From Synechococcus sp. (lineage in GTDB: Bacteria > Cyanobacteriota > Cyanobacteriia > PCC-6307 > Cyanobiaceae), in contig JBJBEO010000001.1 of NCBI GenBank assembly GCA_047284725.1, positions 256,001 through 320,000 on the forward strand: DNA of 64,000 bases. The letters run 5' to 3'. Positions 14,725 to 63,483 of the stretch are shown here, one piece after another. The notes below the pieces were generated by a model. The model made no database searches and was not told where the DNA came from. It worked only from the letters and a program-made list of their open reading frames with translations. The position numbers and the translations under genes are program-made. Positions within the stretch are counted from its first letter, which is position 1; the number at the start of each line of letters is the position of its first letter.

Positions 14725-14909
14725 ACAGGGAGACAACACAATGATTTTGATGCCTGAGTGCTTTTATTCTTAGGCCGAAATCCTGTCACCTTAGGTCGAT
14801 CGGTACCTCAGCTTTGAAGTCAAGAACTTGCAGCGATGTGAGTTGCTTGATGGAGATTTTCAGTTCCTAAACTTTGTCTAGGTCACACCCCAAAAGGGAT
14901 GAGACTCCT

Positions 14910-14983
<74 letters not shown>

Positions 14984-14992
14984 TTCGGTGTT

Positions 14993-15065
14993 GGGGGTTT
15001 AGCTCAGTTGGTAGAGCGCCTGCTTTGCAAGCAGGATGTCAGGAGTTCGAGTCTCCTAACCTCCA
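14993..15065 (+). tRNA. trnA: tRNA-Ala(TGC)
   Basis: GGGGGTTTAGCTCAG...TTTGCAA...GTTCGAGTC...CCTCCA. Confidence 0.97.
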
Positions 15066-15450
15066 CTGACCGAACTTTGTCCCCAACTTCAGAGTATGGA
15101 GTTGAGCTCGAATGGAGTGTGATTTAGATGTGTCCGCTGGACGATCCCAGCTTCCTGTCATTCCAAGTCAGAAAACAACTTTGATTTTGGTTGATAAGAT
15201 GCTGGGCTCAAACTGATCAATCAGTTTGAAGTTCTAGCAGAACCTTGACAACTGCATAGGTGAGTCTGGAAAGAATAAAGCATCTCATGGATGCATCATT
15301 CTTTTTTGGATGATGTTTGATTCTTGAGCAAGAGCCGAGACTCCATCACGTTCTTCTGATTGTGTCGAGCAATTGGGAGTTTGATTTCTGATTCAGCAAT
15401 GAATCAGAAAGAATCCGTTTCAACGACGGCAAGCGTGTTGGATGTTAATT

Positions 15451-21402: not shown

Positions 21403-21587
21403 ACAGGGAGACAACACAATGATTTTGATGCCTGAGTGCTTTTATTCTTAGGCCGAAATCCTGTCACCTTAGGTCGATCGGTACCTCAGCTTTGAAGTCA
21501 AGAACTTGCAGCGATGTGAGTTGCTTGATGGAGATTTTCAGTTCCTAAACTTTGTCTAGGTCACACCCCAAAAGGGATGAGACTCCT

Positions 21588-21661
<74 letters not shown>

Positions 21662-21670
21662 TTCGGTGTT

Positions 21671-21743
21671 GGGGGTTTAGCTCAGTTGGTAGAGCGCCTG
21701 CTTTGCAAGCAGGATGTCAGGAGTTCGAGTCTCCTAACCTCCA
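21671..21743 (+). tRNA. trnA: tRNA-Ala(TGC)
   Basis: Same sequence as copy 1. Confidence 0.97.
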
Positions 21744-22128
21744 CTGACCGAACTTTGTCCCCAACTTCAGAGTATGGAGTTGAGCTCGAATGGAGTGTGA
21801 TTTAGATGTGTCCGCTGGACGATCCCAGCTTCCTGTCATTCCAAGTCAGAAAACAACTTTGATTTTGGTTGATAAGATGCTGGGCTCAAACTGATCAATC
21901 AGTTTGAAGTTCTAGCAGAACCTTGACAACTGCATAGGTGAGTCTGGAAAGAATAAAGCATCTCATGGATGCATCATTCTTTTTTGGATGATGTTTGATT
22001 CTTGAGCAAGAGCCGAGACTCCATCACGTTCTTCTGATTGTGTCGAGCAATTGGGAGTTTGATTTCTGATTCAGCAATGAATCAGAAAGAATCCGTTTCA
22101 ACGACGGCAAGCGTGTTGGATGTTAATT

Positions 22129-58745: not shown

Positions 58746-59118
58746 CGCCCCCTGGTGTAGTGGGTGCCGGTTGTGCGGGTTCCTTGGGACCACAGACCAC
58801 CGACAACCTGCGGGCCGGACGATCGATGCTGTCGCGGCGTCTGTAGCTGTTCAGGGAGACGACCGTGGCGACCTGGAGCAGTTCCCAGACGGTGTCTTTG
58901 CAGGCTGCTGATAGGCGCGGGTGATCCATCAGCGGGTTGCTGAGGGTTCTGGTCTGATCACAGGATGCCTTTTTGTTTTCTCTGGAGCAGGCGTAGGCCT
59001 TGAGTTCGATTTGCCTGAGGGCATCCCGTGTGGGAAGAGGCACGGAGACCGGTTTGGCGTGAAGATCAGCTGGCACCGCCATCAGCACACAGATCAGGGC
59101 GGGCACCGTTGGTCGCAT
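58726..59118 (-). CDS. exported cysteine-containing hypothetical protein
   Basis: Signal-like N-terminus; CSREN...C...PLMDHPRL...CKD...C. Start uncertain (59118 or 59133). Confidence 0.75.
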   Translation of the reverse strand: MRPTVPALICVLMAVPADLHAKPVSVPLPTRDALRQIELKAYACSRENKKASCDQTRTLSNPLMDHPRLSAACKDTVWELLQVATVVSLNSYRRRDSIDRPARRLSVVCGPKEPAQPAPTTPGGVSPNQT

Positions 59119-60433
59119 GGGAATTGCAGTCATGCCGTCATCATGCACTGATTCTGGACTGCCTGGATGGGTCTTGAGACAGCCCATGTCAGATGTCAAC
59201 CTCATGGCGACGCAGAGCACAAACCATTGCATTGAAATAAGGAGGTGAAAATCCAGATGCCCTCATGGTGGAAAGCTCACTCTGTGTTCTTCGGAGGACG
59301 TGATTGATTGAATTGATTGATCTTTGCTCAGAGTTTTCAGCAGTGTTGGGAACTTGTTGTTGGCCCCAAGCTTGCTTCCCATGTTTAGTCAAGGATGATT
59401 CGGGTGGCTAAAAGTGCTTTCCCATTGCAGACTGTGTGATGTTTTACGGTGAGATCCGATCGTTTGTTTTTCTTGATTTGACTTCTTGGAGATGCTTCCA
59501 TGCATTCTTTCGTGGCTGTTCGCGCTGCCTGATTTGGTACCAATAAAAAACCGCAGAGGCTTTTGGTCGGAGCAGATGGAGGCCTTTTTGTTGGTTCTCT
59601 TGGTAAGAAGTGTGGAAATGCTGCCTTTGTCTTCCTTCAGGCATCACGGTGATGAAGTTTCAATTCCCCCCTTTCTAAACTCTTGGGAAAAATAAAGCTC
59701 GGTGCGATGGCACTGCCTTTGAAAACGCTGCATGGAGATCTGCCAGATATCTTGTTGCAGTCCCTTAGAAGGAGGAGGTGTCGTTCTCTCTTTCATCTCA
59801 AGGTCAAAGTGTTGCTGAGTTAGGGGTCGTGCATTGAAATCATTGTTGTCTGGATCAAGCTTCTGCAAGGAGATATCAATTCCTTGTTGAAGAGGGCTTT
59901 GCTTTCGCCCTGGGATTTCATTCCCTGGGTACGCTTAAAGGCTTTTGATCTTGGCACGATTACTTCTTTTCATGCACCATGCAAGGCCAGGTAATTCCTG
60001 GATGGTTTGTTTTTTTTGTTGATGGAAAGTGTATGCTTTTCGTTGGATGCGGAGCCCATGGGGCTTAGGGCTGGTCTTGCCAGGTCGCCTTGCGGCAAGG
60101 TCGCCAAGAATGACATTGGCTTAAAGTGCTGACTAGTGCCATGACTAGTAATGGCAAAAACCTCGTAAAACTCGCTGATAGGAGAGGTTGAGAATGTATG
60201 GATGCTATGCCTTAGTAGAGACAGCTTTCGTAAAAGTGCCCAAATATTTTTTGTGTTGTGGAGTATGAGCCTTGTTCGAGTTTCGATTTATTGGCAACGA
60301 GCCAATTGCAAGTGAATGTCGATTGCTTGCTGTTTGGCTTAGGCATTGCTGCGTACTCTATTGGTTGCAATTTTATATAAAGCGACCATTGCTCTTGCGG
60401 TCACTTTAAAATTCATCAGATCAGTTTTTTGAG

Positions 60434-61444
60434 ATGGAAGAGAGCTTGCAGGAATGCCTAGGACGCTTTGAAGCATTGGGAGGTGTTGCAGAAAATGTTT
60501 GCCAAAGAGAAGGGGACTTTGGGCGCGGCATGTTTCCCGTTGATGCATCGCGCAGTGCGAAAATCATGGCCCCCAAGAACCTTCTTGTTGACAGCGGCAA
60601 TCTGGGGATTTGTGGCGGTGAAATTATGATCAAAGACAAAGCTCGTTATACGGCCCAGGAGGCGGCATTTTTGGGAGATTACTATAATAATTATTCGTGG
60701 GGTAATAATGGAAACAGTGACTCTGCTTCTTTCCTGAAGTTTATTGCTTCTTTGTCAAGCACGATCAAGAAACAGCTTCTTGTCAATGGATTTGTTGATC
60801 GCAAGCTTCTTGGCTACTGTGACGATAGCGATCATTTATTAAAACGATTTATTGATGAGAGGGTCGTCGAATTTCATGGCCGTAATGTGCTTGCTCCTGT
60901 ATGGGAATTTGTGAATCACAGTTCGTTTGTGCCTCCGCTTAGAGTAACTCCTCATGGAGTCGAAACACCACCAATGGAGCGGGGTTCAGGAGAGATTCTT
61001 TTTAAATATAGTGCAAAAAATAGCCCTATGGGCATGTGGAGAAAATATGGATTTGCGTGCAGTTGCGTTGTGGCTTATAGCATTCCTTTTGAAATGACTG
61101 TTGACAATCAACCTCTCTCGGTCAGTTGCTCCGGTCAGCTTGGTTCAGATTCTAAGGATGGGAAAAACTTCTCTGTTGTTGGCAACAGGCTATTGATTAA
61201 GTCTTTGCCGGTGGGTTGTTTATCCGTTGGCCTTCCATTTTCTAACTTTTCTTCGATTTTAGCTTCGGTTGGCTTATCGCAAGCGACTGCGAATAAGTTG
61301 TTCTCAAGAATCCTCGAAGCCAATATTAAGGCCCGCTGCGATCTGATTGGTCTGTTTCAAGGGCCTGGGTTGGGCGCCCAAGCTCAATTGCACAAAGCCT
61401 TGTCCTATGAGATTAGTCTTATTGAGAGCTCTTCGCTTGATTAA
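60434..61444 (+). CDS. putative SET-domain (LSMT/SETD3-like) methyltransferase
   Basis: GRGMF...APKNLLV, VLAPVWEFVNHS and GEILFKYSAKNSPMGMWRKYGF occur in canonical SET motif order. CDS is solid; function is inferred. Confidence 0.65.
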   Translation: MEESLQECLGRFEALGGVAENVCQREGDFGRGMFPVDASRSAKIMAPKNLLVDSGNLGICGGEIMIKDKARYTAQEAAFLGDYYNNYSWGNNGNSDSASFLKFIASLSSTIKKQLLVNGFVDRKLLGYCDDSDHLLKRFIDERVVEFHGRNVLAPVWEFVNHSSFVPPLRVTPHGVETPPMERGSGEILFKYSAKNSPMGMWRKYGFACSCVVAYSIPFEMTVDNQPLSVSCSGQLGSDSKDGKNFSVVGNRLLIKSLPVGCLSVGLPFSNFSSILASVGLSQATANKLFSRILEANIKARCDLIGLFQGPGLGAQAQLHKALSYEISLIESSSLD

Positions 61445-63158
61445 TCGATCTGTCTGTGCAGGCTATGTCTTTGATGAATTGTTCACCGAGGGATGAGATA
61501 GCCTCTACGTAGGTTAAGTTGTTGAGATTATTTTTATTCTGACTGATTGCTTCTTGGGCGAATTCTCTAAGGTTTTTCATGTCTCCTTCGTTGTAGATGC
61601 TCACTAGATTTGATAGTGCTTCGGGATTGTCAGGATTGATTTCGAGTGATTTGAGGGTAGAAGCAAGTGCTTCGTCAAGATTGCCAAGTTCTTTGTAGAT
61701 GCTGCCCAGGTTCATGTGGGCAGCAGGGTTGTCGGGCTTGAGCTCCAGGGATTGGAGAGTGGAGGCAAGTGCTTGGTCAAGCTTGCCGAGGTCTTTGTAG
61801 ATGTTGCCCAGGTTTATGTGGGCAACAGGGTTGTCGGGCTTGAGCTCCAGGGATTGGAGAGTGGAGGCAAGTGCTTGGTCAAGGTTGCCAAGGGATTTGT
61901 AGATGTTACCCAGGTTCATGTGGGCATCGGGGTTATTGGGCTTGATCTCGAGTGATTTGAGTGTTGAAGTAAGTGCATGATCAAGGTTGCCGAGATCTTC
62001 GTAGATGCAGCCCAGGTTCATGTAGGCAGCAGGGTTGTCAGGCTTGATTTCGATTGATTTGAGTGTTGAAGCAAGTGCTTGATTAAGGCTGCCGAGGTCT
62101 TTGTAGATGTTCCCCAAATTTACGAGAGCAGCAGGGTTGTCGGGCTTGATTTCGATTGATTTGAGTGTTGAGGCAAGTGCTTGATCGAAGTTGCCGAGGT
62201 CTTTATAAATGCTTCCCAGATTCATGTGGGCATCAGCGTTGTCAGACTTAATTTCGAGTGATTTGAGTGTTGAGGCAAGTGCTTGATCGAAGTTGCCGAG
62301 GTCTTTATAAATGCAGCCCAAGTTCATGTGGGCATCGGGGTTATCAGGATTAAGCTCCAGGGATTGACGGGTGGAAGTCAGTGCTTGATTGAAGTTGCCG
62401 AGGTCTTTATAAATGCTGCTCAGGAACATGTGGGCGTCAATATTATTGGGATTGAGCTCCAGGGACTGAAGGACGGAATTAATCGCTTGATCAAGGTTGC
62501 CGAGTTCTTTATAGATGCTGCCCAGGTAGATGTATGCATCAGCGTTGCCAGGTTTGAGTTTGAGTGATTCAAGGACGCAGTCAATCGCTTTCTCGAAGTT
62601 TCCAAGTGTTTTGTAAAAGCTGGCCAGGTTCGTGTACGCATCAGGGTTGTCAGGCTTGAGCTCTAAGTACTGAATGGTGGAGGCAATTGCTTGCTCGAGC
62701 TTGCCAAGATCTTTGTAGATGCTGCTTAAATTGAGGTGATAAACTGCGAAAGCAGGATCGAGATTGCGAGCCCTTTTGACTAACTCTTTTGCGGTGCCAA
62801 GGTCTCCCTGGTCTTTGTAGATCAAGCCAAGGTTGTTGAGTGCTGGTGCATAGTCTGGATCAATCAATAGAGCTGCCTTGTAATATTTTATTGCTTCCGC
62901 TTGGTTCTGTAGGGCTTTGAAGATGTTGCCAAGATCCTTGAGTGTCTCGGGATCGTTGTTGTCTAGATTGTGAGCTTTGGATAGGCACTCTTGAGCCTTT
63001 TCAAGTTGCCCCAAAGCGCGTAATGATTTTGCGGCGAACTTCCAGGCGTCAATATTATTGGGCTCGCTTTGAAGCAGTTGTTGGCAAGCCTGGAGGCACT
63101 CTGGATGGCGTCCAGTGGTTGATAATTCCTGAATGATCTTTTTGTCCACCGAGTGCAA
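61419..63158 (-). CDS. tetratricopeptide repeat protein (about 15 TPRs, no catalytic domain)
   Basis: 34-aa periodicity xxAHMNLGxIYKDLGNLDQALASTLKSLELKPDN. Confidence 0.95.
   Translation of the reverse strand: MHSVDKKIIQELSTTGRHPECLQACQQLLQSEPNNIDAWKFAAKSLRALGQLEKAQECLSKAHNLDNNDPETLKDLGNIFKALQNQAEAIKYYKAALLIDPDYAPALNNLGLIYKDQGDLGTAKELVKRARNLDPAFAVYHLNLSSIYKDLGKLEQAIASTIQYLELKPDNPDAYTNLASFYKTLGNFEKAIDCVLESLKLKPGNADAYIYLGSIYKELGNLDQAINSVLQSLELNPNNIDAHMFLSSIYKDLGNFNQALTSTRQSLELNPDNPDAHMNLGCIYKDLGNFDQALASTLKSLEIKSDNADAHMNLGSIYKDLGNFDQALASTLKSIEIKPDNPAALVNLGNIYKDLGSLNQALASTLKSIEIKPDNPAAYMNLGCIYEDLGNLDHALTSTLKSLEIKPNNPDAHMNLGNIYKSLGNLDQALASTLQSLELKPDNPVAHINLGNIYKDLGKLDQALASTLQSLELKPDNPAAHMNLGSIYKELGNLDEALASTLKSLEINPDNPEALSNLVSIYNEGDMKNLREFAQEAISQNKNNLNNLTYVEAISSLGEQFIKDIACTDRSINQAKSSQ
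61626..62747 (-). repeat. 11 tandem 102-bp coding repeats within the TPR gene
   Basis: Recurring gcaagtgcttg..caaggttgcc and gggttgtcgggcttga blocks at 102-bp spacing. Confidence 0.9.
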
Positions 63159-63241
63159 TTGGCGTTGCTCAAGATCGATTCTACTGTGATTGAGCGATTT
63201 CTCCAGGTACCTCTAAAGCAAACTTCTGATTGCTCAGCCGC

Positions 63242-63483
63242 TCAGTCTCTCTGTATTCCCTCTCCACATCGCCCTGTCTGACGGTCAAGCTTTCTCTGCA
63301 TGTAAGGCGTGATCCCCAGTTCACCATTACGCCAGAGGCGATCCATCTCACGGGTGAAATGGGCTGCCACCTGAGGTGAATCGATCACCAGCAGGGTTTA
63401 ATCGTTGGTGTGGGCTGCGGACGGGCTCCAGTTGAACGATCCTGTGACCACTGTTTTGTTGTCGATCACGGCGAACTTGTGGT
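63242..63483 (-). pseudogene. 3' remnant of a phospholipase D-family (HKD) nuclease, ComA-like
   Basis: HKFAVIDNKTVVTGSFNWSPSAAHTND*TLLVIDSPQVAAHFTREMDRLW...RCGEGIQRD*; in-frame TAA at 63398-63400; 5' part absent. Confidence 0.82.

Follow-up and report, generated by a model that had tools for sequence, protein, structure and literature searches.

In the class of SET enzymes that comprises the Rubisco large subunit methyltransferase (LSMT), SETD3 and SETD6, the SET domain is split and carries an inserted helical region, and there is an additional lobe at the C-terminus. The SET proteins described from bacteria are short, canonical and recognised by Pfam, and many are secreted effectors that act on host histones. 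Bacterial SET-domain proteins, often discussed as horizontally acquired, have been reviewed (PMC3980110). This work describes a pair of genes in a 64,000-nucleotide (nt) stretch of DNA (the window, in whose positions coordinates are given unless a locus or contig is named) from Synechococcus sp. GCA_047284725.1, corresponding to positions 256,001-320,000 of the forward strand of contig JBJBEO010000001.1. One gene encodes a SET-like enzyme, and the other a protein composed almost entirely of tetratricopeptide repeats (TPRs). With a probability of about 0.6, this locus encodes a SET-fold protein methyltransferase made of two subunits, with the TPR protein as its dedicated targeting or regulatory subunit.

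The SET-like methyltransferase gene (60434-61444, forward strand) is an open reading frame (ORF) of 336 amino acids (aa), identified through its homologues, its fold match, its match to LSMT in a profile search and the conservation of its motifs. The TPR partner gene (61419-63158, reverse strand) is an ORF of 579 aa, consisting of 14 TPRs followed by a non-repeat C-terminal tail. The two genes converge, with their 3' ends overlapping in antisense by 26 nt (61419-61444), and both stop codons, read directly, lie inside this overlap. Hence the arrangement described by the first-pass annotation, which was made from the letters of the window alone, stands, as does its description of the surrounding DNA as AT-richer: the GC content is 0.448-0.473 over 59500-62999, compared with 0.55-0.63 in the flanks. 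Composition and Pfam matches to PGM and PLD place the pair in a low-GC patch (59000-63240), with the phosphoglucomutase side of the locus at one end and a PLD gene's displaced 3' end at the other. Counts of promoters and terminators at the locus were no higher than in shuffled sequences.

The 336-aa protein belongs to a family for which every source name encountered, from Prochlorococcus, an unclassified bacterium and Synechococcus MIT S9220, was "hypothetical protein". A search of 90%-identity clusters gave 95 relatives at E<=1e-52, and an exhaustive search extended this to 311 representative clusters at E<=0.001. The motifs by which the first-pass annotation linked it to LSMT-type enzymes, GRGMF (residues 30-34), LAPVWEFVNHS (153-163), GEILFKYS (186-193) and KYGF (204-207), are all present, although the spacer between the last two is ten residues, rather than the nine originally given. 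The residues of interest within these and the intervening sequence are G30-R31-G32, R143, W157, N161-H162, E187, Y192 and Y205-G206-F207. When a wider family profile (A4, comprising 69 rows with 22-53% identity to the query) was compared with 177,635 PDB sequences, it matched Rubisco LSMT (E 0.004), pTAC14 (0.24) and SETD6 (0.32). The alignment with LSMT paired R143 with "LRSRAFS", N161-H162-S163 with "LINHS", Y192 with "GEQVYIQY", and Y205-G206-F207 with "DYGF".

In SETD3, contacts with S-adenosylhomocysteine include Arg254, Asn278, His279, Tyr313 and Phe327, of which Asn278, His279 and Phe327 are common to LSMT and SETD6, while the target histidine is surrounded by Trp274, Asn256, Tyr313 and Arg316, with the last of these contacting the substrate backbone (PMC6400499). 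The corresponding cofactor-binding and catalytic residues of the window's enzyme (the Arg, the Asn-His, the Tyr and the Phe of YGF) are present, aligned to those of LSMT and conserved. Among 50 scorable rows, drawn from fetched loci of which some appear twice, R143, N161 and Y192 were found in 50, and H162 and G206 in 49; including E187 and the YGF motif, each of these elements was retained in 49-50 rows.

Two further positions, assigned by motif offset, belong to the putative substrate pocket. At four residues ahead of N161, W157 occupies the position that Trp274 has relative to Asn278 in SETD3, where LSMT has Ala; V145 lies two residues after R143, a position occupied by Phe in LSMT and Asn256 in SETD3. 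These sites co-vary across the family: W157 is absent from all 12 of the F145 rows, which carry L, M, V or I at 157, whereas position 145 is V or I in every one of the 31 rows with W157. Both states are found in Synechococcus and Prochlorococcus loci. This covariation fits an active-site pocket under selection, without indicating which residue would be methylated. Because a Trp like that of SETD3 is paired in the pocket with Val or Ile, and Phe is paired with Leu or Met in an alternative state, the enzyme may have an unusual acceptor specificity.

The predicted fold places the protein in the same class. An AlphaFold2 model generated from a 30-row alignment had a mean predicted local distance difference test score (pLDDT) of 78 and a predicted template modelling score (pTM) of 0.70. 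The first-pass annotation's proposal of a SET fold was borne out by three structural comparisons, each of which returned the SETD3, SETD6, LSMT and pTAC14 class. Firstly, in a Foldseek search of the PDB, ranks 1-36 were all pTAC14/PAP7, Rubisco LSMT, SETD3 or SETD6, with a best E of 2.2e-5 and a probability of 1.00. Secondly, the top 27 entries of a VIA comparison were of this class (Z 10.4-7.1, with the next entry at 5.3), led by SETD6 (10.4) and SETD3 (approximately 10), followed by pTAC14 (8.4-7.3) and LSMT (7.6-7.1), with alignments of 255-297 residues over model residues 1-336. Thirdly, a comparison with 48,161 representative chains that did not involve Foldseek gave 10.1 for SETD6, 9.7 for SETD3, 7.4 for pTAC14 and 7.0 for LSMT, with the next match at 5.3. 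The nearest named clusters in the ESM Atlas, with scores of 0.92-0.94, carry SET, Ctm1 or Rubis-subs-bind annotations. The 336-aa gene is therefore best explained, in so far as the model is accurate, as encoding a divergent bacterial member of the SET class that contains Rubisco LSMT, SETD3, SETD6 and pTAC14/PAP7, and it would probably catalyse methylation, dependent on S-adenosylmethionine (SAM), of a nitrogen in a protein side chain.

The matched entries for pTAC14/PAP7, in which this protein forms a subunit of the RNA polymerase complex of plastids, raise an alternative, that the SET-like protein has lost catalysis and has a structural role alongside the TPR protein. In keeping with this, P0116 (695 aa) carries two tandem copies of the SET-like domain, and neither has an intact NH motif, which reads "NN" in the first and "NR" in the second. 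However, the near-invariance of R143, N161, H162, E187, Y192 and YGF, together with the covariation of positions 145 and 157, which points to selection on the active site, makes a pseudoenzyme highly improbable.

The partner was described by the first-pass annotation as almost entirely TPR, and this too proved accurate. Pfam TPR_1 matches the 579-aa protein at E 1.1e-104 across 14 stretches, and the fourteen 34-aa repeats are gap-free and in perfect register, with a tail of approximately 55 non-repeat residues behind them. At the nucleotide level, the repeats are encoded by an array of 102-nt tandem units (61486-62945, reverse strand), with 13 copies that are 63-100% identical to the reference copy. 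Such proteins are rare in this genome: of the 6795 ORFs of at least 100 aa in its 2.58 Mb, the TPR repeat model matches only three at E<1e-4, the best two being the partners of the genome's two SET-like genes. Across genomes, the partners range from 172 to 579 aa, with arrays of 3 to 14 repeats. It is the tail that is conserved among partners (alignments A2, A3 and A6), and the region encoding its residues 541-579 (...NLNNLTYVEAISSLGEQFIKD...; 61422-61538, reverse strand) is the predicted docking element. The N-termini differ between partners, with 11 of 22 starting M[TAK]GFG followed by a Lys-rich stretch that is absent from the window's own partner.

The association of the two genes is conserved far beyond the window. 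Every fetchable relative was examined, with loci annotated using Pfam and hidden Markov models built from the window's own repeats and the enzyme alignment; this survey of pairing spans Synechococcus, Cyanobium and Prochlorococcus, while outside the picocyanobacteria the link to TPRs rests on two fusion proteins. (Loci, genomes and proteins are cited below by L, G and P numbers.) A convergent TPR-containing gene was found at the 3' end of 35 of the 37 main-family genes with readable downstream DNA, a denominator that omits L026, which ends too early to judge. Thirty-three of these partners are TPR-only, and the other two are TPR-sulfotransferase fusions (L017 and L050). Of the 35 pairs, 29 have overlapping 3' ends (by 4-88 nt) and four have gaps of 3-39 nt; in one of the remaining two the gap is approximately 970 nt (L012), and in the other the tail fragment alone is visible, at the start of a contig (G022). 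Such near-universal antisense 3' overlap is not usual where bacterial genes are linked in function, and may be regulatory in its own right.

This genome provides a second example. A SET-like paralogue with 35% identity (C1:92662-93663) converges on its own 336-aa TPR-only gene, and this pair (G000:C1:91643-93742; L003 7644-9742), which has a 4-nt overlap, lies in a separate low-GC patch beside argJ. When a 60-residue model of the tail (A6) was used to search 46 genomes of the genus, it matched eight places in seven genomes, with a SET-like gene adjacent in every case; among the 46, the SET-like gene itself occurs in those seven and in G013, where the partner is a TPR-sulfotransferase fusion. 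An exhaustive search also identified P0182 and P0192, in which TPRs, a Glyco_transf_41 domain and a SET-like domain form a single chain. A word-index search for fused or longer forms of the enzyme found none, such that the fusions came from the exhaustive search alone. The link to the TPR family that had been suggested from the window is thus supported by convergent adjacency, exclusive co-occurrence within the genus, and fusion.

It could still be argued that the genes have no functional link, and merely share a small cassette, given that they are convergent rather than co-transcribed, and that TPR genes are common in Prochlorococcus islands. Yet the pairing persists over approximately 27-65% enzyme identity, across the three named genera and at least three genomic contexts, the tail co-occurs exclusively with the enzyme, fusion proteins are known, and the co-fold described below passes its controls. 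A coincidental association is barely credible when these are taken together. Two loci contain more than one pair: in Synechococcus sp. TMED19, two complete enzyme and TPR pairs are found in tandem in one island (L022 1384-7166), and in L031 (2306-8321) a second pair is near the first, with its enzyme gene split into two ORFs.

The structure of a complex between the proteins was modelled by co-folding the enzyme (alignment A1), the C-terminal 204 residues of its partner (alignment A3) and SAM, with a result that favours binding between the two proteins. The interface score, ipSAE, was 0.88 in each of three runs, compared with 0.23 for the best of three controls. This mark is reached by 116 of 157 solved complexes and two of 215 mismatched pairs, a calibration that holds only roughly here because custom alignments and SAM were used. 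The runs share at least 92% of their contacts, with a partner pLDDT of at least 84. The predicted interface comprises enzyme residues 164-168, 170, 172-173, 179-182, K191, A194, K195, 259 and, in the C-terminal lobe, 262-271, together with partner residues 516-527 and tail residues N543-L548, V551, E552, S555-E559, I562, K563 and A566. In the model, S556 of the tail touches F165-P168 and K191, the latter adjoining Y192. Conserved interface residues are F165, R170, P179, P180, K191, C262 and L267 of the enzyme, and G492 and S556 of the partner, and the loops at the interface are those disordered in the model of the monomer. Furthermore, G261-C262 of the enzyme, replaced by A-D, and the "SSLG" of the tail, replaced by "GSYS", switch together between Synechococcus-type and Prochlorococcus-type pairs, although shared ancestry alone could explain this joint change.

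The mechanism suggested by this model is that the enzyme would join the TPR protein, the product of its tail-to-tail neighbour, in a working complex of two subunits. Docking may be through the conserved C-terminal tail and final repeats of the TPR protein, which would contact two surfaces of the enzyme, the first being the loops flanking the NH motif and the catalytic Tyr192, and the second a conserved patch, PVGC..L, in the C-terminal lobe. The TPR array would then be available to capture the methylation target, whether protein or peptide, or to control entry to the active site, and would probably act as an adaptor.

The position of the tail beside the catalytic Tyr nevertheless admits two other interpretations of the same interface. 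One is that the pair constitutes a self-contained modification unit, in which the enzyme methylates the TPR protein itself, for instance at the Lys-rich N-terminal stretch behind MxGFG or at lysines of the array. Consistent with this, S556 is modelled against F165-P168 and K191, half of the surveyed partners have the M[TAK]GFG and Lys-rich start, and each repeat of the window's TPR protein carries an "IYK[DES]LG" lysine. However, the tail residues conserved at the interface are Ser and Gly, and neither a Lys nor a His is conserved there, the MxGFG start is missing from the window's own partner, N-termini and repeat numbers vary between partners of 172 to 579 aa, and the co-fold, being of the C-terminal 204 residues, leaves the N-terminus outside its scope. 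That the partner is the substrate is therefore considered unlikely. The other interpretation is that the tail is a pseudo-substrate occupying the groove, holding the enzyme off until the array binds a ligand, for example a phage or stress protein, thereby forming a defence or stress switch. The interface does cover the surroundings of the groove (164-168, K191, A194 and K195), K195 is at Tyr+3, like the substrate-backbone-contacting Arg316 of SETD3, and the pair has a patchy distribution in island DNA. Yet the enzyme has no PADLOC match, with the TPR matches in that database being generic to the repeat; no neighbouring defence genes were seen; there is no evident effector logic for a methyltransferase; and a stable holoenzyme explains the arrangement equally. 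Such a sensor is distinctly unlikely.

Several observations weigh against the preferred reading of a two-subunit methyltransferase, and together temper the confidence placed in it. In terms of gene organisation, the convergence of the two genes means they cannot form a single operon; L049 and L051, which belong to one subclade, lack a downstream TPR gene; the relatives are kin, and therefore the locus counts overstate the number of independent observations; and a distant high-GC subfamily, described below, has other neighbours than the main family. In terms of sequence, the 336-aa protein matched no family in Pfam (E<=1, including PF00856 SET and PF09273), NCBIfam or PADLOC; a single-sequence phmmer search of PDB sequences returned no matches; a 30-row profile gave only chance matches against the same sequences (E>=0.11, none to SET); and the match of the A4 profile to LSMT is weak, at 19 bits. 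PF00856 was also without a match in a six-frame translation of the whole genome. In terms of structure, the fold match is loose, with template modelling scores of 0.33-0.41 and root-mean-square deviations of 5.5-8.3 Å, while pLDDT falls below 50 at residues 161-167 and 187-196 of the monomer model, which are the active-site loops, and therefore the SAM pocket is beyond inspection in that model. The co-fold supports binding as a matter of model confidence, which is evidence short of measurement. Finally, as Ser and Gly are the conserved residues of the tail that come closest to the catalytic Tyr, the tail offers no clue to the methyl acceptor.

The distribution of the family is consistent with the horizontal carriage proposed in the first-pass annotation. 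SET-like genes are present in 7 of 45 other genomes of the genus, and in 24 of 250 genomes of the taxonomic family, representing 12 of 46 genera, a count that includes four weak, distant matches; none was found in 24 genomes from 24 other families of the class. In three genomes (G002, G004 and G031), the pair alone forms a low-GC insert of approximately 1.7 kb between high-GC genes. The low GC content, patchy distribution and insertion of such bare cassettes fit horizontal carriage, and we infer that the pair spreads as a two-gene cassette. A search for repeats flanking this cassette found only short, two-copy matches of the type expected by chance. No relative of the enzyme was found in a viral contig collection, or in a tblastn search of GenBank phages. 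Neither the enzyme nor its paralogue matched any PADLOC family, with the TPR proteins matching only generic TPR-bearing models. Hence a defence role for the pair is without support, as the first-pass annotation had itself cautioned.

The distant high-GC subfamily (L054 3542-6309, L055 2524-5225, L056 2864-5483 and L057 3643-4476) matches the C-terminal two thirds of the enzyme only, at E 1e-11 to 1e-21, with the R, NH and Y retained. In two of its copies the neighbour is a convergent asparagine-synthase-like gene, overlapping by 4 nt; another copy adjoins an NTP_transf_5 gene, and another adjoins cobN. A high-GC relative, P0172, had no match in plasmids or in a metagenome scan.

The carriage of an enzyme on a TPR array recurs in these loci, where other TPR genes encode an N-terminal array joined to a C-terminal enzyme. 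Scanning 12 TPR genes identified a sulfotransferase in three, a 2-oxoglutarate (2OG)-Fe(II) oxygenase in two and a radical SAM/SPASM domain in one, with the other six having TPR matches alone; the L017 and L050 proteins are further TPR-sulfotransferase fusions, and in L016 the TPRs are fused to a class I methyltransferase and a PrmA/PRMT-like domain. The genes encoding TPR-enzyme fusions are at L016 576-5613, L041 309-2828, L044 6222-7928, L035 3190-4875, L026 1752-3461, L031 4457-6328 and L032 6917-8554. Two N-terminal motifs recur before TPR arrays, M[TAKR]GFG with its Lys-rich stretch, and "KKKxxExxTFPVP", and both are found on SET partners and TPR-enzyme fusions alike, with the window's TPR protein having neither (loci L013-L016, L022, L030-L033, L037, L042 and L047; also L025, L028, L034, L035, L038-L040, L044 and L045). 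TPR-fused 2OG dioxygenases have been described in cyanophage by Iyer et al. 2010 (PMC2938197), with no mention of the SET-like family in the sections concerned.

These fusions suggest that TPR arrays are targeting modules for protein-modifying enzymes in picocyanobacteria, with the SET-like enzyme being a member recruited in trans. A tentative extension, more speculative than the two-subunit enzyme itself, is that the pair is the trans-acting member of an island-borne toolkit, in which interchangeable TPR arrays aim different protein-modifying enzymes (the SET-like methyltransferase, sulfotransferases, 2OG-Fe(II) oxygenases, radical SAM enzymes, GT41, and class I and PrmA-like methyltransferases) at shared targets, such as envelope or phage proteins. 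Were this the case, the gain and loss of modules, and the expansion of repeats, would diversify the phenotype of cells under pressure from phage or grazers.

Two other features, the first of which extends past the end of the window, are separate from the pair. Beyond the low-GC patch, 243-nt direct repeats of the PLD gene 3' end (63241-63483 and 70421-70663) are 76% identical and 7180 nt apart. In L018 (6241-13663), these repeats flank an integrase, a CHASE4 protein, a GGDEF-EAL protein and a GGDEF protein, in DNA of approximately 40% GC, and the intervening DNA is an integrative island inserted at the end of the PLD gene. This integrase island was considered as a carrier of the SET and TPR genes, and was ruled out, as the repeats bound 63241-70663 and therefore the pair lies outside it. 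Elsewhere, two identical-looking tRNA-Ile(GAT)/tRNA-Ala(TGC) pairs, at 14909-15066 and 21587-21744, are 6.7 kb apart, and are probably the spacers of two neighbouring rRNA operons.

This pair therefore resembles several described systems, without corresponding to any one of them. The similarity to LSMT, SETD3, SETD6 and pTAC14 extends over the whole length of the fold, with residues 1-336 of the model aligning to residues 72-483 of SETD3 and 19-473 of SETD6, and includes the Gly-x-Gly loop, the Arg, the NH(S), the catalytic Tyr and the YGF. By motif offset, the Trp preceding the Asn by four residues is shared with SETD3 (Trp274), whereas the residue two after Arg143 is Val, Ile or Phe in the family, rather than the Asn256 of SETD3. 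Unlike these enzymes, the window's protein has only 10-15% sequence identity to the class, is missed by the Pfam SET and Rubis-subs-bind models, is approximately 100 residues shorter, and belongs to a bacterial family found in picocyanobacteria and high-GC organisms; it also has a separate TPR subunit, which none of the matched solved entries shows. With the described bacterial SET proteins it shares a bacterial origin and a SET domain, predicted in its case, but differs in being missed by PF00856, in its LSMT-like architecture with a C-terminal lobe, and in its free-living phototroph host. The joining of a TPR array to a protein-modifying enzyme is similar to that in proteins of the GT41 O-GlcNAc-transferase type, and in P0182 and P0192 the TPR, GT41 and SET-like components occur together; here, however, the array and enzyme are separate polypeptides, encoded by convergent genes with overlapping 3' ends, and joined in the model by the tail.

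No paper on the SET-like family, or on the pairing of SET-like and TPR genes in picocyanobacteria, was found in the literature searched, which excludes most subscription journals. What appears to be new is therefore a bacterial branch of the LSMT/SETD3/SETD6 class that is invisible to Pfam, has an obligate-looking TPR partner, and is encoded with an unusual, conserved antisense overlap. A family that had carried no annotation beyond "hypothetical" can now be assigned a predicted fold and probable chemistry. No phototrophs in the ocean are more abundant than Prochlorococcus and marine Synechococcus, and much of the variation between their strains is held in small islands of unknown function, such as that described here. 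Hence a class of enzymes known mainly from eukaryotes appears to have a bacterial branch with a dedicated TPR subunit, and this pair offers a simple two-protein system for understanding how TPR arrays direct the modification of proteins.

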